Positions 435 to 36,138 of a stretch of 36,138 nucleotides of DNA are shown one piece after another. The notes under the pieces are model-generated. The model made no database searches, was not told the origin of the DNA, and saw only the letters and a list, made by a program, of their open reading frames with translations. Location: the IMG/VR virus record IMGVR_UViG_3300029928_000023, positions 1-36,138 of that record. One strand, written 5' to 3'. This stretch comes from a virus. Position 1 is the first letter of the stretch, and the number at the start of each line of letters is the position of its first letter. Position numbers and translations under genes: made by a program.

Positions 435-1283
435 CTAAGCTGCTGGCAATGTCAGAGACTGTCCAACATGAATCGTGGTGCTGGTGATCTTCGACAGGCT
501 CATGATCTCTCTATATCGTGATCCTGATCCGAGGTACTTCTCTGCAATTCCCCATAAGGTGTCGCCTTTCTTGACGGAGTATGTCTTTGTCTTCTTCGCT
601 GCTTCATTCGCTGATGCGTTCGTGCCAGGAATGCTGAGAACTAAGCCCGGATGAATCGTCGCACTTGTAAGTGAGTTTAAACTCATGATCTCTCTATATC
701 GTGATCCTGATCCGAGGTACTTCTCTGCAATTCCCCATAAGGTGTCGCCTTTCTTGACCTCAATGGTCTGGTATACGGTATCATTATCTTTTATATCTGC
801 TTTAACATTGTCAGCATATGACGGCACACCATATCCGATGATGTACGGATCATTTAATAAGTATTTGCGTTCGTGAACGGCATCTGAAGTATTTCCCTCT
901 ACTGTATATACATATGTAGATGTTACTTTCGTCACAATTCCAACGTGCGACGGATCTGTCAGCTTATGTCCCTTTGAGAAGAAAATCAAAATGCCAGGAA
1001 CTGGTGTGTATGTGCCACCATAAGCCTTTGCATTCTTCCATCTGCCCTGCTTGATGAACCACTTCATCCCGGCTGTACAGCTTGCAAATCTTAAGACAAC
1101 CTCTTTTGCGATTCCGCATACGATCATAACCCATGTTACAAAAATGGCGCACCACGCAACATCCATTCCAAATGTTGATCCTGTCGCTTCATTATATACT
1201 TTAATATATTTGTCGTCACCGTCCGGCTCACATGTGCCGATCTGACTTTTTGCTGTGTTTATAATTTTGTCAATAATACTCAT
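435..1283 (-). CDS. Endolysin: N-terminal CHAP-type peptidase/amidase plus two C-terminal LysM repeats
   Basis: Cys/His pattern DVAWCAIFV ... DPSHVGIV ... VEGNTSD. Two copies of KKGDTLWGIAEKYLGSGSRYREIMSL. Last gene of the late operon, 3 nt after the holin. Confidence 0.85.
   Translation of the reverse strand: MSIIDKIINTAKSQIGTCEPDGDDKYIKVYNEATGSTFGMDVAWCAIFVTWVMIVCGIAKEVVLRFASCTAGMKWFIKQGRWKNAKAYGGTYTPVPGILIFFSKGHKLTDPSHVGIVTKVTSTYVYTVEGNTSDAVHERKYLLNDPYIIGYGVPSYADNVKADIKDNDTVYQTIEVKKGDTLWGIAEKYLGSGSRYREIMSLNSLTSATIHPGLVLSIPGTNASANEAAKKTKTYSVKKGDTLWGIAEKYLGSGSRYREIMSLSKITSTTIHVGQSLTLPAA
499..758. repeat. Perfect 77-nt direct duplication (499-575 and 682-758) encoding the two LysM cores
   Basis: The string ctcatgatctctctatatcgtgatcctgatccgaggtacttctctgcaattccccataaggtgtcgcctttcttgac is read identically at both positions, 183 nt apart and in frame. 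Confidence 0.95.
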
Positions 1284-1286
1284 ATT

Positions 1287-1709
1287 CTATTCCTCACTTT
1301 CTTCTGATTTCTTCTGCAGAATATCGATAGCCTTGGTAATAACCGCCGGGAGTGGTACACCCATAAGACCAGCGTTCTCGACAAGTGATATCAGTTCGTT
1401 TGCAATGAATGCAATGATCACCGCATCACGGATATAATTTGTGCCGATTATCAAATCAAGCCGGTACGACACAAGAACAAATACAAGCGTCATACATTTA
1501 CGGCATAACCCTTTCCAGCATGTCTTACTTTCAAGACTGCCGGTATTCGTTTTTTTACTCTTATGAAAAACTCCGGCCACCACCAGCCCACTGATATAGT
1601 CAAGCCCCATGAAAATCAAAAGAGACACCAATCCGGTGTCCCATCCTCCAAACAATGCTGCTATTCCGGAGCCAACCGCCCCGATCACTGTACATATAAC
1701 CTGTTTCAT
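1287..1709 (-). CDS. Holin (phage_holin_4 / TcdE-like family)
   Basis: 140 aa with several hydrophobic segments and the motif GGWDTGLVSLLIFMGLDYISG ... ANELISLVENAG. Acidic C-terminus. Immediately upstream of the endolysin. Confidence 0.8.
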   Translation of the reverse strand: MKQVICTVIGAVGSGIAALFGGWDTGLVSLLIFMGLDYISGLVVAGVFHKSKKTNTGSLESKTCWKGLCRKCMTLVFVLVSYRLDLIIGTNYIRDAVIIAFIANELISLVENAGLMGVPLPAVITKAIDILQKKSEESEE

Positions 1710-1721
1710 ATAAAGCCTCCT

Positions 1722-2606
1722 TTATTTCTTTTCTAATACACTTACTCTATCTTTGAGATCAGCAAGTTCTGTTTTCTGATCATTAACTGTATTTTTTAAA
1801 TTATCTACAGCATTTTTTAAGTTATCTACAGTTGATTTTAAATTATCTACAGTTGATTTTAAATTATTAATCTGATTTGTTAATGTATCATTTACATTGT
1901 CAATATCTCCCTGTAGTTCTGTTTTTAAAGTATTTACTTTGTTTTCCAGAGTTAAAGATAAAGCACTACACTTCTCATCAATCTTTCCGTTAAGCTCACC
2001 ATAGTCCTCAATCTCTTTGTTTTGTACACTAGCAACCTTTCTGTCCATTTCAGTAAAAGCATTAGATGTATTATTTGCTGCAGTGTTTAATTTACTGTCC
2101 ACCTCATCTCTCGTATAGATATTACTCAGATTTTGATACAACTTGTTAAAAATAGGGGTAACTGCTGCTATATTAATACCCTGTAAACTGATCTCATAAA
2201 GAGGCATATCACACACATCTGCTCCCCAGTAAAGATGTCCGCTAGTATAAGATGGTCTTTCTGCTTCGCCGGTTGATACAACTCCTTTTATAACCTCAAG
2301 CGTTACATTTTCAATTCCGGTATCTTTTCTATATCTTGCGACTACCAAATCTTTACGATTATATCCCGGACTTCCTGAGTCAATCTGCAGATCATCATAG
2401 TTGCCTGGTTCAATTCTTGCATGGCAGCCATACATCACAAGCTCACCTGCAGCTATTCGGCAAGTATTTGCATCAATCATCGTTGCTTTTAAACATTCAC
2501 CGATTGAAAGCACATATGTCTCAGTTCCAAATATTCCCATATGTAATGCACGATCATCATCTGAATTAACATGGTTCGTTCCTGTTTTTCCTGTTATTAT
2601 TTTCAT
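1722..2606 (-). CDS. Tail fibre / receptor-binding-type protein with a C-terminal heptad coiled coil
   Basis: Last tail gene before the lysis cassette. The N-terminal domain (KIITGKTGTNHVNSDDDRALHMGIFG...) recurs in Firmicutes prophage tail modules, from memory. The C-terminus carries NLKSTVD NLKSTVD NLKNAVD NLKNTVN heptads. Confidence 0.55.
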   Translation of the reverse strand: MKIITGKTGTNHVNSDDDRALHMGIFGTETYVLSIGECLKATMIDANTCRIAAGELVMYGCHARIEPGNYDDLQIDSGSPGYNRKDLVVARYRKDTGIENVTLEVIKGVVSTGEAERPSYTSGHLYWGADVCDMPLYEISLQGINIAAVTPIFNKLYQNLSNIYTRDEVDSKLNTAANNTSNAFTEMDRKVASVQNKEIEDYGELNGKIDEKCSALSLTLENKVNTLKTELQGDIDNVNDTLTNQINNLKSTVDNLKSTVDNLKNAVDNLKNTVNDQKTELADLKDRVSVLEKK

Positions 2607-2609
2607 TAC

Positions 2610-3575
2610 TTATCCTTTCCGTGTAGCATCTCCTACACTATATGATATATCAACAGTATCATCATTTAACTTAACTATTATGTTTGTAATACTACTTATC
2701 ACATAAGCATCCGTCACACTTTCATATCCACCAATTACATCACCTATATGTCGCTCAGTATCACTGCTTGTAACTTCAAACGCATCAGATCCTATCAGTT
2801 CTTTCAATCTCTCTGTTCCGCCAGAGACAAGGTCCTCAACAGATTCTGCAGATGTGTTCTCATAAGTACTCACATATTCTTCCACTCCATATAGGCTTTG
2901 AGATGTACTTATATTTCCATTTGCATCAGCATATAAGTGCACTACAGTTCTGTCCTGAAGTTCTCCCTGTCCGAGACATATAAGGTGATTTACTCCCTTA
3001 TATGTCTTGGTAAGTGTGAAATTCACATCGTTCTGGTTGTATTCTATCCGGTCAGAATAATCGATCACTGGAACATATGATACATGCACTATACCGTCTT
3101 TTACTGACAAGTACAGATTCATTCCAATTGATGCACCAAGCTTTATTAAACCTGTATAAAGATCTGTATATCTTGCAAACTGATATGAATTAATCGAAAT
3201 TCCACTTTTATCTGCTACAAAAACGCTTTCAAGTCCACAAACTCTAAAAAGGCTCTGAAGCACATCTCCTATATTTCCCGATACAATCCTGTATGCAGAG
3301 CCATTTGGAGGCTCTATGATCTTACTCATAAGTACTCCCCTGAAACTTCTGCCTGAATATCTGATCTCATTATTCTCCGTTATCACTTTTACGGAATCTA
3401 CAACTCCGCCATACTCTGTATCATTGACATACCACCAATAACCTCCATGCATGACATTGTTTTTAATGCCAACTGTAATCTCAAAATTCTTCTTATCAGC
3501 AATATCAAGATCAATTTCATATTTATGTAGACATCCCTCATCATTCAAATTCCGATCCATGTAAATTACATCCAA
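2610..3575 (-). CDS. Tail tip / minor structural protein (Siphovirus Gp37-like, tentative)
   Basis: 321 aa, located after Dit and overlapping it by 10 nt. The N-terminal pattern MDVIYMDRNLN...YEIDLDIA...FEITV resembles Gp37-like tail proteins. The call is mainly position-based. Confidence 0.45.
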   Translation of the reverse strand: MDVIYMDRNLNDEGCLHKYEIDLDIADKKNFEITVGIKNNVMHGGYWWYVNDTEYGGVVDSVKVITENNEIRYSGRSFRGVLMSKIIEPPNGSAYRIVSGNIGDVLQSLFRVCGLESVFVADKSGISINSYQFARYTDLYTGLIKLGASIGMNLYLSVKDGIVHVSYVPVIDYSDRIEYNQNDVNFTLTKTYKGVNHLICLGQGELQDRTVVHLYADANGNISTSQSLYGVEEYVSTYENTSAESVEDLVSGGTERLKELIGSDAFEVTSSDTERHIGDVIGGYESVTDAYVISSITNIIVKLNDDTVDISYSVGDATRKG

Positions 3576-4390
3576 AGTGGTTCGCTCCTTTCAGCTTTCA
3601 AAAGCAAATCAAAGTTAAATGTAGAATTCCAATATACAACCTGTTTACCCGATTTTATTTTTTGAAAGATATCACTTCCCCTATTTCTATACCGAAACAG
3701 GTTCACTGTTGCACCATTCAATTTAAACAGCTTAATAGTCTGCTTCTTTGAATCGATCTCAACTCTTTCTCCTGTTTGTATCGTATAGTTCAATATATAA
3801 GTATGTCCGCCAATAGATATAGCTGGATTCTGTGCATACCCATATATGGTCAAGATAAATTCAGATTCACTAAAGCTATCATTTGCAACTTGTGCTGCAT
3901 ATCCCGGAGATGCCGTATAGTCATATTCATATCCGTATGGATAACCTCTGCCGGTTTCATCTACTGGTATATCTTTATACCGATATTCTTTTAAATCTTC
4001 TTTCACCCATGCATCTGCCGCTGTTACTATCTTTAACGACAGTTTTGTGTGTTGCCCTATTAGATAATCTGACTTATCACTTGCATAGATGAAACATTCA
4101 AGATAATAATTGCCAATATACAGTTTTCCGGGCACTTCATTAATGATATCCTGCTCAAACAGTTCAAACATATCATTCTTTACACGATTGCATATTCTTG
4201 GAGTTGGACAGCATATAGTGACCGGAAGTGTCTTTTCTGTAATTTTCTTTTGAAAATTCTCAACACACTTCCGATCACTATCATAGATCCACTGATAATT
4301 CCGGAGGTCATTTTCATTTGCAAAGATATATTTCTTTCCAAACTCAAGAACATTCCCCTGACTATTTACATATTTTATATTCTCAAGCAT
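3566..4390 (-). CDS. Distal tail protein (Dit-like phage tail family protein)
   Basis: 274 aa, immediately downstream of the tape measure gene with an 8-nt overlap, which is the conserved Dit position in siphoviruses. Confidence 0.55.
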   Translation of the reverse strand: MLENIKYVNSQGNVLEFGKKYIFANENDLRNYQWIYDSDRKCVENFQKKITEKTLPVTICCPTPRICNRVKNDMFELFEQDIINEVPGKLYIGNYYLECFIYASDKSDYLIGQHTKLSLKIVTAADAWVKEDLKEYRYKDIPVDETGRGYPYGYEYDYTASPGYAAQVANDSFSESEFILTIYGYAQNPAISIGGHTYILNYTIQTGERVEIDSKKQTIKLFKLNGATVNLFRYRNRGSDIFQKIKSGKQVVYWNSTFNFDLLLKAERSEPLWM

Positions 4391-6776
4391 ATGTTCTCAC
4401 CATCCTTCCAAATTCTCTACCATCAATCTTAAGCTTCGTACCTTCTGTAAGTGCTCTTACCATGTATTCATACATATTTTCATCAATATGTCTTACCACC
4501 TCAAGAATCAAATACAGAACCTTTGATAACTCTGATTCATTGTCTACTGTTCTTCCTGTTGCTGCTGCCATCTGATCTGCTACCTTACTGATCCATTCTG
4601 TATTCTTCTCTAGCGGCACTACAGCCTCGGCTCCATTACCTTCAAGAATACCGACCTGACCTTTCTTAAGTACACCACCTTCCGCAAGCTGTGGTGCATT
4701 TAATTTATCAAGCTTATTAATTGATACTCCCGGAATCGCATTAATAACGGATATACAAGCATTGATTGCCGATATAAAACCATTAATGATCTTTGTCGCT
4801 GTACCTAATATGCCATTGATAGCTGCTGTAACGGCTCCCTTGATGCCATCTGCGATAGCTGTTCCGACCTTAGAAAAGATGTCCTTAATCTTCTGCCATG
4901 TATCTGAAAAGAACTTAACCATCGGCGAAAATGCATTCTTGATACCAGTCCAAGCCTTACCAAAAATGTCACTAAACCATGTACCTACTGAGGCATATGC
5001 ACCTTTTATTCCATTCCAGATTCCACTGAAAAATCCAGTAACAGCCGACCAAACACTCTTAATTCCATTCCACGCTGTTGTAAAGATGTCTTTAAAAAAC
5101 TTTCCTACTGCTGCAAATGCTGATTTTATACCATTCCATATACCTTTAAAAAAGGCAGGTGCTGCATTCCAGACTTTCTTAATGCCTTTCCAAGCCATTG
5201 AAAACGATTCACGACAGTTGTTGATAACTTCCATAATTGCAAGAATAGCTGCTTCCAATGTGATCTCAAGCATCTGGCAAAACCATTCAAGTATCGGTTT
5301 CAGCACTCCAAGTATCTCTTCTGATATCAGACTTATCACCTCAACAAGCGGAGGCAGGATCATATTGATAAGTTCCATCAATGGATCTAATATCATTAAG
5401 ATCAAATTTATAATTGGATTGAGTAGATCAAGTATTGGCTGCAATAATTCCAGTACCGGCTGCAAAATCGAAATCAAAACAGGAAGAATCTGCGACACTA
5501 TCTGCACAATAGGCGGTAAAAGCATATTGATCAAGTTCGTAAGCGGCGGCAAAATCGTCTGAACAATCTGCAATAGTGGTGGTAACAGTGTATTAACAAG
5601 GGATAATATAGTAGGTAAAATAGCTTGAAAAGTTCCAAATATAGACTGTAATGCAGATGTAAGTATCTGACCCAGTTCTCCACCTATACCTGGCAACAAG
5701 GTTTCAAGTATTCCCGGAAGGTTATTCACCAATTCAGACAACAACGATGTTGCGCCCTGTATAAGTGATGGCAGTATCTGTTCTATAAGTGGCGGTATAT
5801 ATGGTGCCAACTTCTGTGCAAGACTTGATATACCTGTAACTATCCTTGGCAGTGTATCCGCTATTCGTGGTACAAGATTGTCTGCTACAGCCATCACAGA
5901 ATCAACAAGGTTATTTATCAGAACTCCCATATCCTGTGATGGGTCTGCCATTCCTGTGAGCAGATTCGTCCATGCAGACTTCATCATGCCGATAGATCCC
6001 TGTATTGTAGTTGCTGCTTCTTTTGCGGTTGTGCCTGTTATCCCCATAGCAGTCTGTACAACATGAATAGCCTCTATCATCTTATCAAATGATACACTAT
6101 TGACATTATCTGCTGTCACAGTCATGGAGTCACCGAGTACACCAGAATCGTTGATAAGCCTTGCCATCTCGGATGCAGTACCACCATAACCAAGCTTCAA
6201 ATTGTCAAGCATGGTGTAGTTTTGCTTTGCAAATCCCTGATATGCATTCTGTATAGATGCCATATCAGTTCCCATTTTGTTGGCATTATCCGACATGTCT
6301 GTTATGGCCAAATTGGCAGTTTCAGCCGCCTTTTCTGTGTCACCACCCAATCCTTGCAACAATGACGCTGAAAAGCTCGTTACAGTGTCCATATACTCGT
6401 TTGCCGACAGCCCCGCCGTCTTATATGCATTGTTTGCATATTCCACGACCTTATCTGAGCTGTCCTTGAACAGCGTCTCAACACCACCGACAAGCTGTTC
6501 ATAGTCTGCATACTCGCTTACAGCCTTAGCAGTAATACCAGCTATTCCAGTTGCCACAGCGGTTGTTGCAACCACGGCGACCTTTGCGGCCTTGAGCGCA
6601 AACTTACCGATGTTGCCAAACACGGATCCCATCTTGCTGCTTGTCTTCTCAGCCTTATCCCCTGTCTCCTCAATTTTCTCAATTGCATCTTCATTCGATA
6701 CTGCGATTCGCCCCAGTATCTTAAATACTTCCAAAAGGGTATACCCCCTTTCCTCGATAATAAAAAATAGAGACAC
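4383..6776 (-). CDS. Tail tape measure protein
   Basis: Largest gene (797 aa), directly after the G/T chaperone pair. It has a Leu/Pro/Ile-rich helical core (LPPLLQIVQTILPPLTNLINMLLPPIVQIV) and repeated W-x-G-I-K units (AWKGIKKVW, IWNGIKSAF, AWNGIKSVW, IWNGIKGAY, AWTGIKNAF). There is no ATG at the 5' end: the start is GTG 6776 or TTG 6734, the latter after GGAAAGGGGG. Confidence 0.9.
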   Translation of the reverse strand: MSLFFIIEERGYTLLEVFKILGRIAVSNEDAIEKIEETGDKAEKTSSKMGSVFGNIGKFALKAAKVAVVATTAVATGIAGITAKAVSEYADYEQLVGGVETLFKDSSDKVVEYANNAYKTAGLSANEYMDTVTSFSASLLQGLGGDTEKAAETANLAITDMSDNANKMGTDMASIQNAYQGFAKQNYTMLDNLKLGYGGTASEMARLINDSGVLGDSMTVTADNVNSVSFDKMIEAIHVVQTAMGITGTTAKEAATTIQGSIGMMKSAWTNLLTGMADPSQDMGVLINNLVDSVMAVADNLVPRIADTLPRIVTGISSLAQKLAPYIPPLIEQILPSLIQGATSLLSELVNNLPGILETLLPGIGGELGQILTSALQSIFGTFQAILPTILSLVNTLLPPLLQIVQTILPPLTNLINMLLPPIVQIVSQILPVLISILQPVLELLQPILDLLNPIINLILMILDPLMELINMILPPLVEVISLISEEILGVLKPILEWFCQMLEITLEAAILAIMEVINNCRESFSMAWKGIKKVWNAAPAFFKGIWNGIKSAFAAVGKFFKDIFTTAWNGIKSVWSAVTGFFSGIWNGIKGAYASVGTWFSDIFGKAWTGIKNAFSPMVKFFSDTWQKIKDIFSKVGTAIADGIKGAVTAAINGILGTATKIINGFISAINACISVINAIPGVSINKLDKLNAPQLAEGGVLKKGQVGILEGNGAEAVVPLEKNTEWISKVADQMAAATGRTVDNESELSKVLYLILEVVRHIDENMYEYMVRALTEGTKLKIDGREFGRMVRTYA

Positions 6777-31198: not shown

Positions 31199-31543
31199 AT
31201 GCCTGTCACAAAATCAGATATCAAAATATTGAATTATGTCCACCATCGTCACTTTCGACCTGTCACCTATGCGGCACTTTCTGGTAAATTCAGCAAGCAT
31301 GAAGTAGACAATCTTATCAAAGGTGAACTTTTGTCCTACGTTCCTATAATCGTTGATTATCAGGGAATCCCATCGGAAAAGCTTGCCGCCGAATCTGCAA
31401 TATCCCTTACCAAAAATGGTATATATGTGGTTGAACAGAATCAGTGGTTCGATACCAAATATCTGCTTACGCAAATAATCGTCCCTATACTGGTTGGTGT
31501 CGCAAGTGCCGTCATTACAACAGTCTTATTACGATTACTGTAG
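31199..31543 (+). CDS. Tail-anchored membrane protein, moron 1 (N-terminal wHTH-like region, single C-terminal TM)
   Basis: AAAGGAGGG RBS. C-terminus IIVPILVGVASAVITTVLLRLL. It is on the opposite strand to the surrounding early genes. Confidence 0.65.
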   Translation: MPVTKSDIKILNYVHHRHFRPVTYAALSGKFSKHEVDNLIKGELLSYVPIIVDYQGIPSEKLAAESAISLTKNGIYVVEQNQWFDTKYLLTQIIVPILVGVASAVITTVLLRLL

Positions 31544-31713: not shown

Positions 31714-32061
31714 ATGTATGAATACGATTACGATAAAGTCACTCTAAATTTGGAAGAAAAATACAAACTCTTTATTACCAAACACAAAAAGAAAACAACC
31801 GAAAAGTTTTTAGGTGATTCTAAAGACTACTTACTTGGAATTCGTTTCATTGAAGCCAACTACTCTGGTCAGTGGAATGAAATAGGTGAACACATACCCG
31901 ATGGTACATATTCTGTAACCTGGTATTATGGCCGTTATCTTATATGGAAAAGGAATAAAGCTTTTTATGGAATGCTTTCATCGTTTGTAACTCCCATAGT
32001 TGTTTCCATAATTACATCAGTACTAACAGTAATAGTCCTACGCATATTAGGCTTAGGATAA
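31714..32061 (+). CDS. Tail-anchored membrane protein, moron 2
   Basis: AAGGAGG RBS. The C-terminus FVTPIVVSIITSVLTVIVLRILGLG resembles the moron 1 anchor. Confidence 0.65.
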   Translation: MYEYDYDKVTLNLEEKYKLFITKHKKKTTEKFLGDSKDYLLGIRFIEANYSGQWNEIGEHIPDGTYSVTWYYGRYLIWKRNKAFYGMLSSFVTPIVVSIITSVLTVIVLRILGLG

Positions 32062-32248
32062 GAATTGCTGTTCTGTATCTGCGTTCCTTCTTGTAAAGGT
32101 GTTCAAAGAACTTCATTTCATCATCTGAAACTGGGAAAATCTCCTGGAAGGCTTTTCGTTCTTCTAGGATTTTTTCGTTCTTCATTTCTTTTTTGATGAC
32201 TTTCATGTCCCCTGCTTCCAATGTTTTGTTTAACTGTTCTGTTGTCAT
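32012..32248 (-). CDS. Tail-anchored early protein (78 aa), convergent with moron 2
   Basis: AAGGAGAAAGGAG RBS. C-terminal TM helix AILILSLICVGLLLLVLM. Its 3' end overlaps moron 2 by 50 nt. Confidence 0.55.
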   Translation of the reverse strand: MTTEQLNKTLEAGDMKVIKKEMKNEKILEERKAFQEIFPVSDDEMKFFEHLYKKERRYRTAILILSLICVGLLLLVLM

Positions 32249-32263
32249 GGTTCTCCTTTCTCC

Positions 32264-32292
32264 TTGTCGTCCTCACCATTTCACCCTATAAT
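32264..32292 (+). promoter_or_regulatory. Sigma-70-type promoter for moron 3
   Basis: TTGTCG (32264-32269), N17, TATAAT (32287-32292). Confidence 0.45.
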
Positions 32293-32339
32293 TTCCGTAG
32301 GTGCTACCAACACCAATTCATACGAAAGAAGGTGAAACT

Positions 32340-32513
32340 ATGTCAAAAGATTCCTTTAAAGATGCCTTGACAAATATTGAAGACATTGCACTGGCTTACA
32401 CAGTCAAGACATCAACTGCCACAACACCTGAGCAGTTCCTTGATGATTATGTGAAAAATAAAAATTCATTTATTGAAATCAAGAAACAACATGGTGATAA
32501 GTGGATGATCTAA
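32340..32513 (+). CDS. Small soluble hypothetical protein, moron 3 (57 aa)
   Basis: ATG 32340 is preceded by GAAGGTGA. Its stop overlaps the stop of the convergent minus-strand gene by 4 nt. Confidence 0.5.
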   Translation: MSKDSFKDALTNIEDIALAYTVKTSTATTPEQFLDDYVKNKNSFIEIKKQHGDKWMI

Positions 32514-32788
32514 AACTCAAATCTGGCAATTGATTTAAGAACCTCTTTTGCCACATCGAGCAGGTGTAGTGAGTGCTTTACCGAGTATTTCTTTGCTCCA
32601 AGTACTTTTAAGATGTCCTTGATAACGCACTCCTCGCCGTCATACGTTTCCGACAATTCACAGTTCTTTGCGATATAATAGAAAATTATCTCCTCGTCAG
32701 TGAGAACTTTCCTCACCTCAGAGAATTCTTCTATATCTTTCGTCTTCTCTGCTATATCTACCAACTTTGAATTTATACTGTTTGTCAT
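32510..32788 (-). CDS. Hypothetical early protein (92 aa)
   Basis: AAAGGAGAG RBS. First gene after the Cro-like regulator. Confidence 0.55.
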   Translation of the reverse strand: MTNSINSKLVDIAEKTKDIEEFSEVRKVLTDEEIIFYYIAKNCELSETYDGEECVIKDILKVLGAKKYSVKHSLHLLDVAKEVLKSIARFEF

Positions 32789-32802
32789 GGCTCTCCTTTC
32801 TC

Positions 32803-32831
32803 TTATTAGTATTCATTTTGTGAACTAGTAA
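32803..32831 (-). promoter_or_regulatory. Degenerate duplicate of the PR promoter/operator cassette, downstream of the Cro-like gene
   Basis: On the minus strand, TTACTA-gttcacaaaatgaatac-TAATAA. The 17-nt spacer matches the PR spacer at 16 of 17 positions. Confidence 0.45.
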
Positions 32832-33025
32832 GGCAAAAAAATATTTTCCCTAGGGAAACTACAAATATCTGCATACATTCTTAATTCTGCCTCTTTCATC
32901 TTTACCTTACCGCTTTCCCAATTACCAACAGTAATACGAGAAACGCCCATTTTATCAGCTATATCCTGCTGTGAAAGCCCAGCATTTACTCTAACAGCTG
33001 ATAATCTTATCTTTAAACTATTCAA
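32825..33025 (-). CDS. Cro-like XRE-family regulator
   Basis: LSQQDIADKMGVSRITVGNWESGK. TTG start 8 nt after GAGGAGG. Divergent from the CI-like gene. Confidence 0.75.
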   Translation of the reverse strand: MNSLKIRLSAVRVNAGLSQQDIADKMGVSRITVGNWESGKVKMKEAELRMYADICSFPRENIFLPY

Positions 33026-33058
33026 TATTTCGCCTCCTCTCTTTCATCTTGTAATTGC

Positions 33059-33087
33059 ATTATAGTATTCTTTTTGTGAACTGTCAA
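33059..33087 (-). promoter_or_regulatory. Early lytic promoter (PR-like) with an operator in the spacer
   Basis: On the minus strand, TTGACA (33087-33082), N17 (gttcacaaaaagaatac), TATAAT (33064-33059): both hexamers are perfect consensus. Confidence 0.75.
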
Positions 33088-33116
33088 GCATAATGAAAAC
33101 TTTTTTTGCTTTTCGC

Positions 33117-33145
33117 TTGCTATAAGTATTCATTTTGTGTATAAT
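33117..33145 (+). promoter_or_regulatory. Repressor promoter (PRM-like) with a third operator copy
   Basis: TTGCTA (33117-33122), N17, TATAAT (33140-33145). The spacer contains AGTATTCATTTTGTG. Confidence 0.65.
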
Positions 33146-33171
33146 CAAGACATAAGAAAGGACGTGATCAG

Positions 33172-33546
33172 ATGGGTGCAAACCAATTTGCTAAATTATT
33201 AAAATATTATCTTATGCTAAACGACAAAACTCAGAGTGATTTAGTCAACGATCTTGGATATGAAAAATCAACAGTATCAAATTGGTGCTCTGGTGCAAGA
33301 GTTCCCAAAATTGATACAATTATAGATATTGCTAAGTACCTGCATGTTGACCCGGGAGATTTAATAGTCGAATCGGAAAACAAACCTACATATTACTTTG
33401 ACGATGAGACAGCTAAAAAGGCACAAGAGATATTTGAGAACAAGCAGCTCTCTCTTCTCTTCGATGCTGCAAGAGATGCTGAACCGGAAGATCTTGAAAC
33501 CGTTCATACAATGCTCATGGCTCTGAAAAACAAAGAAAAAAGATAA
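33172..33546 (+). CDS. CI-like XRE-family prophage repressor (no S24 peptidase domain)
   Basis: KTQSDLVNDLGYEKSTVSNWCSGARVPKIDTIIDIAKYLHVDPGDLI. Divergent from the Cro-like gene. The C-terminus is helical and lacks a Ser/Lys autocleavage domain. Confidence 0.8.
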   Translation: MGANQFAKLLKYYLMLNDKTQSDLVNDLGYEKSTVSNWCSGARVPKIDTIIDIAKYLHVDPGDLIVESENKPTYYFDDETAKKAQEIFENKQLSLLFDAARDAEPEDLETVHTMLMALKNKEKR

Positions 33547-33613
33547 TGTACAAAAAACATCCCACGGTATTTGTTATTGTATCTACGACTACGTTACAAG
33601 GGGGATGAGTTAA

Positions 33614-33850
33614 TTGTATGATATAAATGTACAGATGATGGATCTGAAGACTACAAAAGTTAAAGAAACTGTTACCTGCAATGAAGATGGTTCATATACT
33701 ATCTTTCTTAATACACGATTCACACAGGAACAGCTTAACGATGCTTATATCCATGCACTCAACCATATCATTAGAGCGGACTTCGATAAACACACCAGCT
33801 CTGTAGATACCATTGAGGCTTATGCGCATGGGTTAAATAAAATTTTATAA
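33614..33850 (+). CDS. Short ImmA/IrrE-like protein with HAxxH in place of HExxH (tentative)
   Basis: TTG start after AAGGGGGATGA. EDGSYTIFLNTRFTQEQLNDAYIHALNHIIRADFD...IEAYAH resembles short ImmA-type partners of XRE repressors. The motif codons are cat gca ctc aac cat. Confidence 0.45.
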   Translation: MYDINVQMMDLKTTKVKETVTCNEDGSYTIFLNTRFTQEQLNDAYIHALNHIIRADFDKHTSSVDTIEAYAHGLNKIL

Positions 33851-33872
33851 AAGAAAAAGGGGGGATAATTTT

Positions 33873-34319
33873 ATGAACATTACGGAATATATAAAAACAC
33901 GAGTTGATGATCAGATTGCATGGTATGATAAAAAATCCGTAACATGCCAGCGTTGGTATAAGGTCTTTCAGGCAATAGAAATTTTCATAGCCGCCAGCAT
34001 TCCTGTACTCTCCGGTTATGCCAGCAAGTATGGTGTAATCCCTTTGATTATAGGTATTGAGGGAGCTATTATAACTATAGTTGAATCTATCACCAGATTG
34101 TACAAGTTCCATGAAAACTGGATAGAATACAGAACTACATGCGAACTTCTGAGATATCAAAAACATTTGTATCTTACAGGCTCTGCACCATACAATGCAG
34201 AACCTGAAAGCATTGAAAATATTTTTGTAAGGAATATTGAGAATATTATATCTTCTGAAAATAATAAATGGAAAGCTGTCAATATGCAGGAAACAACAGA
34301 GAAAAAAACTGTTAATTGA
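33873..34319 (+). CDS. DUF4231 / SLATT-like two-transmembrane protein
   Basis: [13 protein letters not shown]...[21 protein letters not shown]...[19 protein letters not shown]...[23 protein letters not shown] is the DUF4231 architecture. GGGGGGA RBS. The gap to the upstream gene is only 22 nt. Confidence 0.7.
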
Positions 34320-34509
34320 TCCTTTGATATGTTTTTTCAAATATATCTGGTTTGCAGGGATATTGCTCTCCGTTTACTCCTGTGATGATCCAATCACCGG
34401 GAGATGCGGTCATCTTTCCCTCTAATGTATCAATAATTATTTTTACATCTGTTTGATAAGCCTCTACAATTACAGGTTTCTTTTGAAATTTTTGTTTACA
34501 GGAACTCAT
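34312..34509 (-). CDS. Small conserved phage protein (65 aa), nested antisense between the SLATT-like and TIR-like genes
   Basis: GGAGGTG RBS 5 nt upstream. KPVIVEAYQ...[27 protein letters not shown] is a recurrent phage small-protein motif, from memory. Confidence 0.6.
34442..34470 (+). promoter_or_regulatory. Candidate promoter of the TIR-like gene, lying inside the antisense ORF
   Basis: TTTACA (34442-34447), N17, TACAAT (34465-34470). Confidence 0.5.
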
Positions 34510-34543
34510 AAATACACCTCCAAAAAGAAAGGGGATTCAAAAT

Positions 34544-34960
34544 ATGACTATATATAATATTTTTATAAGCCACGCTTGGAAATATTCCGAACATTACAAA
34601 AAAATTGTCCAGTGGCTTGATGAGGCACAGGCAGAGGGTAAATTCAGATGGAAAAACTACTCTGTTCCAGAACATGATCCACTTATTGATCCAAACAGTT
34701 CGGCCGGTAAAACCAAACTAAAATCAGAACTTAACGAGCAGATCCGACCAGCAACAAAAGTTATTATCCTTGCTGGTATGTATGCTGACTACAGTGATTG
34801 GATTGAATATGAACTTACCACCGCCGTATGCATGAATAAGTGCATAATTGGCGTAAAACCTTGGGGACAGGAACGTGTCGCTGCTATTATAACTAATAAT
34901 TCCGACACTATTGTAGGTTGGAATAAAGATTCCGTTATTAATGCAATTTTAAATTCTTAG
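34544..34960 (+). CDS. Stand-alone TIR-like domain protein (DUF1863 / ThsB-like, 'Tir chaperone'-type)
   Basis: YNIFISHAWKYSEHYKKIVQWLD...NYSVPEHDPL...VIILAGMYADYSDWIEYELTTAV...IIGVKPWG...VGWN. The S-x-W-x-x-x-E-L region aligns with the TIR catalytic-Glu motif. Confidence 0.7.
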   Translation: MTIYNIFISHAWKYSEHYKKIVQWLDEAQAEGKFRWKNYSVPEHDPLIDPNSSAGKTKLKSELNEQIRPATKVIILAGMYADYSDWIEYELTTAVCMNKCIIGVKPWGQERVAAIITNNSDTIVGWNKDSVINAILNS

Positions 34961-35113
34961 GATTTATTATAACAGATGTAAATAATTATAACAACCTGTG
35001 TTCCTCGGCATACCAGCCGGGGAATACACTTAAAATTGAATAGTGTATTTAACCGGGCAGCCGAGGGGTGTTACACCATATCCGTTCGAGTCTTGAAAGA
35101 AAGGATGATTGAT

Positions 35114-36138
35114 ATGAGAAATGCAAACGGATTCGGATCTGTGTATAAGCTGTCTGGCAAGCGCAGGAAGCCATGGATTGCCCGTAAAACAAAAGGATGG
35201 GCTATTGACGAAGAATCAGGAAAGGCTAAGCAGTTATATGCTACCATCGGCTATTACAGCACCCGGACAGAAGCTCTTACTGCTCTGACCAATTATAATC
35301 AGAATCCCTATGATATTGATACCGCAAATATTACATTCTCTGAACTCTATGATAAATGGTCAGATATACATTTTCAGGAAATTGTACCATCTGCCGCAAG
35401 AACATGGGTATCTGCTTACCATCATTCAAAGTCTCTCTGGGACATGCGAATGAGAGATATTCACCCTAATCACATGGAGGGAACGATCCGGAATGCAGAT
35501 GTTGGTCAGAGTACGAAGCAAAGAATGAAATCTCTCTACAACATGCTCTATAAATATGCTATGAAGCTGGAGATTGTTGATAAGAACTATGCCAAGATGT
35601 GTGATTCCATCAAGCGTGGAAAGCCTCAGATCATTCGTGTTCCGTTTACTCCGGAGGAAATAGATCTGCTCTGGGAGAATATAAACTATGGTGTTGTTGA
35701 TATGATTCTAATTGGTATATACAGCGGATGGCGACCACAAGAACTGTCTATCTTGAAAATAGCTGATATTGATCTGGAAAATAATACCATGTTCGGCGGT
35801 CTTAAGACTGATGCAGGGCGCAACAGGTGCGTTCCTATTCATTCAAAAATAAAAGATCTGATCATAAAAAGAGTAGATCAGGCTAAAGAATTGGAATCCG
35901 ATTATTTATTCAATGATCCGGATAGTCAGTCTGGTATGCGCATGACATACGACAAATACAGAAGCCGTTGGAATAAGGTCATGGGAAAATTAAAACTCTC
36001 CCACCGTCCTCACGATACAAGACATACATTTATTACATTGGCAAAAGATGCTGGCATGGATGAATACATCATAAAGCTGATAGTTGGTCATTCTATCGAG
36101 GATGTGACTGAGAAAGTATACACCCACAGGACCATGGA
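35114..36138 (+). CDS. int: Tyrosine integrase. It runs off the window end and continues at 100-133 of the circular sequence; 352 aa in total.
   Basis: ATG 35114 lies 8 nt after AAAGGA. N-terminus GFGSVYKLSGKRRKPW. Catalytic signature GWRPQEL ... HDTRHTF ... GH ... KVYTHRT. It is absent from the ORF track because there is no in-window stop. Confidence 0.9.
   Translation, partial: MRNANGFGSVYKLSGKRRKPWIARKTKGWAIDEESGKAKQLYATIGYYSTRTEALTALTNYNQNPYDIDTANITFSELYDKWSDIHFQEIVPSAARTWVSAYHHSKSLWDMRMRDIHPNHMEGTIRNADVGQSTKQRMKSLYNMLYKYAMKLEIVDKNYAKMCDSIKRGKPQIIRVPFTPEEIDLLWENINYGVVDMILIGIYSGWRPQELSILKIADIDLENNTMFGGLKTDAGRNRCVPIHSKIKDLIIKRVDQAKELESDYLFNDPDSQSGMRMTYDKYRSRWNKVMGKLKLSHRPHDTRHTFITLAKDAGMDEYIIKLIVGHSIEDVTEKVYTHRTM

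Follow-up and report, generated by a model that had tools for sequence, protein, structure and literature searches.

The 36,138-nucleotide (nt) virus record IMGVR_UViG_3300029928_000023 of IMG/VR, which was analyzed at its full length (hereafter, the window), carries a cassette at positions 33,873–34,960 that encodes a membrane protein of the SLATT type and a stand-alone TIR protein, with a small gene of the PGDYG-like family between them on the opposite strand. As judged from protein sequence comparison, the SLATT–TIR pair is very likely a homolog of type VII Thoeris, and the locus as a whole is probably a three-gene version of that system carried by a prophage, with the small gene as a possible negative modulator. 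The pair taken alone adds little, being another member, from a clade of gut Bacillota prophages, of a type that was named in 2025 and predicted earlier. What matters is the embedded antisense gene, which is found in every prophage copy examined and in two gene orders, and whose family occurs in hundreds of phages, among them the laboratory phages SBSphiJ and Fado. This conserved embedded PGDYG gene is what is new here: it is undescribed in the literature searched, where no paper mentioning the term PGDYG was found. The coordinates of all features are collected in Table 1.

The SLATT protein scores 127.7 bits against the NCBIfam profile SLATT_1 NF033634 (cut-off 41, E 2.6e-37), as well as 76.8 and 48.1 bits against Pfam DUF4231 and SLATT_1, respectively, and is covered over its full length by phrog_7395 (E 5.6e-44), a family with function not known. 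Its hydropathy profile has two maxima, at residues ~40 and ~64, which coincide with the two transmembrane (TM) helices placed in a preliminary description of this DNA; the helices are predicted at residues ~31–49 and ~55–73 and are followed by a conserved cytoplasmic helical region. The SLATT/DUF4231 layout given in that description is thus borne out by profile matches above the cut-off. The protein (n = 334 homologs) is 43–44% identical to the products of SLATT genes that adjoin relatives of the Pseudohongiella-type ThsB (loci L037, L039, and L050).

The TIR protein matches Pfam ThsB_TIR PF08937 (formerly DUF1863) with 60.8 bits (cut-off 21.2), the ThsB models of PADLOC (E 3e-13), and phrog_6988 (E 1.3e-32). 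In a fold search its AlphaFold2 (AF2) model (predicted local distance difference test score, pLDDT, 87.7) matches the bacterial TIR/ThsB structures 8fz9, 8wcf, and 9b7d, and also the related fold of nucleoside 2-deoxyribosyltransferase/DNPH1. The ThsB_TIR profile and the TIR-like fold agree with the preliminary assignment of this open reading frame (ORF), and the same is true for the retained glutamate of its WIEYEL motif: E90 is unchanged in 27 homologs and is aligned with the Glu of WVRYE in Bacillus cereus ThsB (6LHY/9B7D), which we take to be the catalytic E85. The protein is 38% identical over 136 residues, i.e., over its full length, to ThsB of Pseudohongiella nitratireducens (IMG 2745918373; E 4e-32), and shows weak similarity only to the type VII ThsB clusters of Bacillus licheniformis and Alteromonadales.

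Type VII Thoeris consists of the TIR gene thsB beside the SLATT effector gene thsH (Yirmiya et al., bioRxiv December 2025, doi 10.64898/2025.12.03.692087). According to the same preprint, type VII TIRs make canonical cyclic ADP-ribose (cADPR) only upon infection, cells carrying the system are arrested by added cADPR, and the AlphaFold3 (AF3) model of ThsH is a membrane-spanning oligomer with positively charged cytoplasmic cADPR pockets between protomers; six systems were tested, of which three defended, including that of Pseudohongiella nitratireducens, and in the tested systems thsB and the effector have consecutive gene IDs. The window contains the same two families, both on one strand, and its SLATT_1 subfamily is the one that partners the Pseudohongiella-type ThsB. 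By analogy, the mechanism expected here would also be the same, leading from infection through cADPR to oligomerization of SLATT in the membrane. The differences are that here the SLATT gene comes first and the TIR gene second, 224 nt apart, that a conserved antisense gene of 65 amino acids (aa), not mentioned in the preprint text, lies between them, and that the cassette is situated in a prophage lysogeny module beside the integrase. The preliminary description regarded the pair as a departure from Thoeris; it very probably falls instead within the published type VII (ThsB/ThsH). The accompanying argument, that neither protein has a ligand-binding module, conflicts with the published model of cADPR pockets in the cytoplasmic part of ThsH. 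Type I Thoeris likewise generates its signal with a ThsB-type TIR protein in which the Glu is conserved, whereas the effector here is a membrane protein, and the signal is 3'cADPR in type I as against canonical cADPR in type VII. No effector of the SIR2–SLOG or Macro-plus-TM (ThsA) type was found in the ORFs scanned (32510–36136), and no match to a CD-NTase (SMODS) nucleotidyltransferase was found among the neighbors of the SLATT gene (HTH, or helix-turn-helix, gene; 78-aa ORF; PGDYG; TIR; integrase). Since SIR2, SLOG, Macro, and CD-NTase genes are all missing, the locus is neither type I/II Thoeris nor CBASS.

The 224-nt interval between the SLATT and TIR genes, which the preliminary description passed over in calling them a minimal pair, is filled by the minus-strand ORF of 65 aa. 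This ORF is a real conserved gene. In 53 non-identical related loci, the conservation of its three codon positions is 0.82/0.88/0.57 in the minus frame, the TIR gene showing the same pattern in its own frame, and independent gene callers have annotated it on many contigs. The encoded protein matches phrog_419 (E 4e-25) and, with 19.3 bits against a cut-off of 27, positions 5–33 of the 102 positions of Pfam PGDYG (PF14083); the latter profile is matched at E <= 1 by 34/34 members of the small-protein family (best 3.9e-07), and a close homolog bears the NCBI label "PGDYG domain-containing protein." There are 4942 database homologs, with 74–98% identity among the matches listed, and the protein is conserved (75–85% identity) above either of its neighbors. 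In its AF2 model (pLDDT 90.3), seven short strands and a single helix make up a small beta structure, for which BFVD contains many fold matches among predicted phage PGDYG proteins (TM-score up to 0.85). A profile search of the PDB with this protein gave no match, and a Foldseek search of the PDB gave nothing significant (best E 1.4).

The three genes are tightly packed. The stops of the convergent small and SLATT genes overlap by 8 nt, and the small gene diverges from the TIR gene, their starts being 34 nt apart. The region between these starts holds the Shine–Dalgarno sequence of the small gene (GGAGGTG, 34515–34521, minus strand, 5 nt before its ATG) and the ribosome-binding site of the TIR gene (GAAAGGGGA, 34527–34535, plus strand, 8 nt before its ATG); in the 53 related loci, few non-coding columns are as well conserved as these two purine-rich blocks. 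With only 34 nt between the two starts, the promoter of each gene must lie within the coding sequence of the other.

For the comparative analysis, relatives of the SLATT protein were scanned in 185,579 species genomes (80 loci) and relatives of the TIR protein in IMG/VR (45 loci), and the six-frame ORFs of these loci were searched with profiles of all three proteins. SLATT and TIR genes adjoin in 25 + 5 + 7 of the 80 SLATT-anchored genome loci and in 36 of the 45 TIR-anchored phage contigs. The co-occurrence of the two gene families, which the preliminary description had proposed to check, thus extends to well over 80 loci from several phyla and to both gene orders. The order found in the window (SLATT, antisense small gene, TIR; order A) is present in 25 genome loci, from Lachnospiraceae, Faecalibacterium, Gemmiger, Subdoligranulum, Veillonella, Dialister, Megasphaera, Thermoanaerobacterium, and Brevibacillus, and in 36 phage contigs; the Clostridioides difficile phage phiCDKH01 has this layout too. 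Every locus in which SLATT precedes TIR with a gap of 229–418 bp has the small gene in the gap on the opposite strand; the gap is 229–290 bp in most loci, and overlapping stops recur. The cassette of the window is located directly upstream of the integrase, as in most related loci: of the 25 order-A genome loci, at least 20 have a recombinase gene as the next one downstream. About 60% of loci have a tyrosine integrase in this place, and 6/6 further loci have a large serine recombinase; the cassette is likewise upstream of a recombinase in Sellimonas prophages and in contigs with this exact protein.

In the second arrangement (order B), the SLATT and TIR genes are adjacent or overlapping and are followed by the small gene, which converges on the TIR gene with overlapping stops, and then by the integrase. 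Order B, which involves other TIR subfamilies, was found in Staphylococcus phages SN8 and 187, Streptococcus phage Javan199, the satellite Javan277, five Bacillales genomes, and a viral contig (L005); the small gene is also present in Staphylococcus phages SN10 and X2. The reverse order, TIR before SLATT with gaps of 8–50 bp, occurs without the small gene in 7 loci (Methylococcales, Nitrospirota, Zoogloea, Archaeoglobus, and others); these seven loci show no phage-type integrase, one of them (L035) having a weak 27-bit recombinase match. In Brevibacillus formosus, a SLATT–TIR pair of the same subfamily, in the same order as in the window and with a 103-nt gap, also has no small gene. Overall, prophages and satellites carry the three genes as a linked set, in which the small gene without exception runs antisense to both defense genes. 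A functional tie between the small gene and the SLATT–TIR pair is therefore likely.

Several of these loci have features of their own. In Javan199 (MK448702.1), GenBank shows only short hypothetical ORFs at 1520–2376; the minus strand there, which adjoins the PGDYG gene and the integrase, encodes a SLATT protein (1915–2376) and a ThsB_TIR protein (1520–1930, Pfam 68.7 bits). The satellite Javan277 (MK448394.1, 1–6022) carries an integrase-side defense cluster with Abi_2 and Fic/DOC proteins, in which a SLATT gene is accompanied by a 197-aa ThsB_TIR of another subfamily and an antisense PGDYG gene. The B. formosus ThsB_TIR is 70% identical to that of the window, which makes this pair a natural two-gene comparator; its island (L135–L138, about 1200–6420) also encodes a SEFIR/TIR_2/CAP12-PCTIR protein (699 aa) and a TIR_2 plus TPR-S protein. 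In one Lachnospiraceae locus (L015, 6001–6713), a SLATT gene and an antisense PGDYG gene occur without TIR and are followed by a 450-aa ORF; the cassette has probably decayed there, at the edge of a prophage.

Neighborhoods of this kind have been noted before. In the passages of Iyer et al. (2022, Viruses 14:1977, PMC9503650) that treat them, TIR genes of firmicute phages (Javan281, SN10) adjoin two-TM SLATT genes, sometimes together with an HTH regulator and a zincin peptidase, and are proposed to limit superinfection, which is essentially the idea of the preliminary description. The same passages are silent on the PGDYG gene, which is present here in those same phage groups (SN8, SN10, 187, and Javan phages). 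The tight linkage and the homology to type VII ThsB speak for a prophage-borne TIR–SLATT unit of defense or superinfection immunity, as the preliminary description had suggested, whereas this unit is neither a minimal pair nor undescribed.

Outside the cassette, 778 phage records of GenBank contain homologs of the small protein; many of these phages are lytic, including Herelleviridae (SBSphiJ, SBSphiJ1-7, Fado, Enterococcus phage EF1, and LfeInf) and one member of Straboviridae, and Gordonia and Mycobacterium phages have homologs as well. In IMG/VR, at least 599 stretches match the small protein; the 36 closest comprise about 16 three-gene cassettes and about 16 stand-alone genes in gene strings of the lytic type. 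The PGDYG-like family thus represents a general phage gene and not a subunit dedicated to Thoeris. Of 23 longer ORFs with the domain, three (L166, L163, and L207) have a Tad2-like domain (PF11195; best E 1e-22) at the C-terminus, and a fourth fusion was found in Latilactobacillus phage TMW 1.2272 P1 (94 bits); the four fusions are independent. In one further ORF (L145, 2803–3498), the PGDYG domain is fused to DUF551 (PF04448), a phage domain without known function.

Fusion to known sponges is also what revealed the Thoeris sponge family Sequestin (PF21825) (Tal et al., 2025, doi 10.1101/2025.07.12.664507); the published sponge list also names Tad1, Tad2, Acb2, Acb4, and Lockin. By the standards applied to Tad2 and Sequestin, the PGDYG-like protein is similar in being short, phage-enriched, mostly stand-alone, and sometimes fused to Tad2. 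It differs from Tad2, Sequestin, and TadIV-1 in having no sequence or fold similarity to them, its predicted structure being a small beta barrel, and it differs from Tad2 sponges in that the gene here lies inside a defense cassette and not in the anti-defense locus of a lytic phage. Sequestin and TadIV-1, which were compared by description, are not described as PGDYG-like.

Taken together with the gene neighborhoods, these sequence features give the notion that the 65-aa protein acts as an inhibitor or self-immunity factor a somewhat less than even chance. More tentatively, PGDYG-like proteins might constitute a large family of phage inhibitors of type VII Thoeris, of which the temperate copies would be embedded in antisense as an off switch; such proteins could be the first counter-measure to canonical cADPR signaling, or a direct blocker of ThsB or ThsH. 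As a possible refutation of this inhibitor hypothesis, phages SBSphiC and SECphi18, which are listed as activating type VII ThsB signaling (Yirmiya et al., 2025, Table S2), were searched for a PGDYG homolog, and none was found; SBSphiJ and Fado, from the same phage panel, have one. The absence from SBSphiC and SECphi18 is compatible with the hypothesis and is no proof of it. SBSphiC (LT960610.1) also contains an unannotated stand-alone Tad2-like ORF at 34072–34338.

A number of observations weigh against an inhibitory role or against the three-gene prophage unit as such. The 65-aa protein is not itself Tad2 (DUF2829), as it has no PF11195 match, and Foldseek ranks SPO1 Tad2 (8wje) fourth with E 1.6 and probability 0.20, i.e., as noise. 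In seven other phages (six lytic and one induced temperate), PGDYG genes are neighbored by genes for dUTPase, NrdI, RNR-activase, and DNA methylase; the 29 neighbors scanned in these seven phages yielded nucleotide-metabolism and miscellaneous domains only, and no known anti-defense family was found. One three-gene cassette, from Brevibacillus sp. (L020), has no phage genes within 6 kb. In the window, the antisense gene separates the two defense genes, which may therefore not be co-transcribed. Finally, phage TIR systems with other effectors (L122, L125, L129, and L127) have no PGDYG gene; this includes the ThsI-like (type VIII) locus L127, although that family also uses cADPR. The PGDYG gene thus tracks the SLATT system and not every cADPR system, which fits an inhibitor or regulator directed at ThsH or ThsB better than a generic cADPR sponge. 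As to the partners in these systems, TIRs of the same family (41–46% identity) are paired in L122 (6399–6920), L125 (6380–6949), and L129 (5358–6014) with a multi-TM protein of ~170–220 aa with the motif LLDQY+LYV...RR, L125 having in addition a second small TIR-like ORF and a LexA-like repressor upstream; in L127 (1155–2943), a 459-aa protein that by eye resembles the type VIII effector in sequence lies immediately upstream of the TIR gene.

The strict co-occurrence with SLATT and TIR, which holds for orders A and B and across several TIR subfamilies, could also point to the small protein as a positive component, that is, a sensor or adaptor for a phage product that activates the TIR in a true three-component Thoeris variant; its very high conservation and its association with the SLATT-type system, rather than with phage TIR systems that use other effectors, count in the same direction. 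Such a role is nevertheless unlikely, given that many phage contigs, as well as lytic phages without TIR or SLATT, have close homologs (60–78% identity) as stand-alone genes, that some homologs are fused to the anti-Thoeris domain Tad2, and that no intervening gene exists in 4 of the 6 tested type VII systems (three of the six defended), in the seven loci with TIR before SLATT, and in B. formosus; placement on the opposite strand is, moreover, unusual for an obligate operon partner. Slightly less likely again is an accidental position of the small gene within Thoeris, as an integrase-proximal backbone gene or moron that encodes, for instance, a recombination directionality factor (RDF) or an unrelated nucleotide-binding protein. 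The cassette is indeed nearly always integrase-proximal, and PGDYG genes are common in other phage contexts, often near genes of nucleotide metabolism; however, the small gene keeps a fixed spacing to SLATT and TIR and fixed overlaps, the three genes co-travel among unrelated phages, Javan199, which appears to have the small gene alone next to the integrase, has unannotated SLATT and TIR genes, and order A places the TIR gene between the small gene and the integrase. The excisionase or RDF role in particular was rejected, because the small protein remains nearly the same (75–85% identity) beside unrelated tyrosine and serine integrases.

It is far less probable that the SLATT and TIR proteins are independent prophage morons, the one a holin-like or exclusion protein and the other a stand-alone NADase, without mutual signaling. 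Here the two genes are not contiguous and each might have its own promoter, and some phage TIR genes occur without SLATT. Yet the breadth of the linkage between the two families, across phyla and in both orders, argues otherwise, as do the homologous two-gene operons, which signal via cADPR and defend, and the membership of the TIR protein in the same subfamily as type VII ThsB of a defending system.

Under the preferred reading, a three-gene type VII Thoeris with the small gene as negative modulator, the lysogen would obtain the ThsH-like SLATT and the ThsB-like TIR proteins from the plus-strand lysogeny transcript. By inference from the published system, ThsB would sense a superinfection and convert NAD+ to canonical cADPR, which would bind the cytoplasmic face of ThsH and lead to its oligomerization and a breach of the membrane, so that the infection would be aborted before the invader completes its cycle. 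The 65-aa protein would be an anti-Thoeris factor of phage origin that either sequesters the signal or blocks ThsB or ThsH. As the small gene is antisense and its transcript would converge on and overlap that of the defense genes, the two may be expressed reciprocally: transcription of the small gene in lytic growth would supply both the inhibitor and an antisense RNA across SLATT, and the prophage would thereby be spared from aborting its own induction. The small gene is absent from the non-prophage two-gene versions, i.e., the seven loci with TIR before SLATT and the B. formosus island.

When the phage genome is circular, the small gene and, across attP, the late genes have the same orientation. 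In one related locus (L233), the integrase is followed by a minus-strand CHAP/LysM lysin, and in phages SN8 and 187 the order is holin, endolysin, opposite-strand integrase, and small gene. One may speculate that late transcripts read through into the small gene, antisense to the integrase, TIR, and SLATT genes, which this geometry allows only after excision; again as speculation, the attP geometry fits a role of the small gene during lytic growth. A comparable case is reportedly the BstA prophage abortive-infection system of Owen et al. (2021), which is said to contain the aba self-immunity element. The concept of an element inside its own locus that spares the lytic cycle of the prophage is shared; in BstA the immunity element is a DNA sequence, while its counterpart in the present cassette would be a protein, to which an antisense transcript might be added.

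Types VII and VIII are not inhibited by Tad1 or MoTad2 (Yirmiya et al., 2025), so that the small protein, if it inhibits type VII Thoeris, would represent the first anti-defense family directed at bacterial immunity that relies on cADPR. In that case it would also account for the ability of prophages to keep an abortive-infection system and still be induced unharmed, and a widespread but uncharacterized phage domain would gain a function.

Table 1. Features of the cassette and of the adjoining lysogeny module (positions in the window)
Feature	Position	Strand	Evidence or remark
Cro-like HTH gene	32825–33025	-	
CI-like HTH repressor gene, heads the plus-strand lysogeny gene string into SLATT	33172–33546	+	Pfam HTH_26, HTH_3, Phage_CI_repr
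78-aa ORF in the usual ImmA position	33614–33850	+	phrog_20886, function not known
ThsH-like SLATT_1/DUF4231 effector gene (predicted)	33873–34319	+	148 aa; NCBIfam/Pfam profiles, hydropathy
PGDYG-like gene, small beta protein	34312–34509	-	65 aa; phrog_419, codon conservation, BFVD fold
Promoter-like TTTACA-N17-TACAAT, proposed for the TIR gene	34442–34470	+	10/12; inside the antisense gene
Divergent intergenic region with both ribosome-binding sites	34510–34543	.	34 nt; sequence
ThsB-type TIR protein gene, putative catalytic E90 (WIEYE)	34544–34960	+	138 aa; Pfam, PADLOC, PHROG, fold
Weak promoter-like TTTCCA-N17-TATTAT, positioned to drive the small gene	34554–34582	-	9/12; inside TIR codons 4–13
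Tyrosine integrase gene, runs off the window end	35114–36138	+	Pfam Phage_integrase, 57.9 bits

Promoter-like sites were identified by a pattern scan scored out of 12. The region contains 13 such matches against 10.2 +/- 3.6 expected, i.e., not above chance. The promoter that the preliminary description had ascribed to the TIR gene exists as a match of the stated sequence; it lies inside the small gene, and its -35 element is not conserved in related loci. As for the weaker match on the minus strand, its bases also encode the invariant TIR residues Y4, I6, and W12, so that their conservation shows no independent promoter constraint; promoter and coding constraints are not separable in TIR codons 1–13.

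Both defense genes lie on the same strand between the repressor-like HTH gene and the integrase, and the 78-aa ORF ends 22 nt before the SLATT gene, exactly as first described. The label "ImmA-like" for this ORF did not hold: no Peptidase_M78 match was obtained for it, and it has HALNH in place of HExxH (Glu to Ala). Related prophages carry an ImmA/Peptidase_M78 gene at this position, and the ORF may be a degenerate or non-catalytic relative, or may be unrelated. The switch region between the Cro-like and CI-like genes (33026–33171) contains a perfect TTGACA-N17-TATAAT on the minus strand (33087–33059) and a 10/12 promoter-like match on the plus strand (33117–33145). Lytic genes (those for YqaJ, RecT, and terminase) are located on the minus strand of the window, and the setting is that of a temperate phage. 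A megablast search of 32400–36138 against GenBank phages gave no match, and an Rfam scan of 32000–36138 detected no RNA family. Within the otherwise minus-strand early region, two ORFs of ~115 aa (31199–31543 and 31714–32061, both on the plus, i.e., lysogeny, strand) each encode a hydrophobic C-terminal helix and have no Pfam match; their products may represent exclusion proteins, or the genes additional morons.

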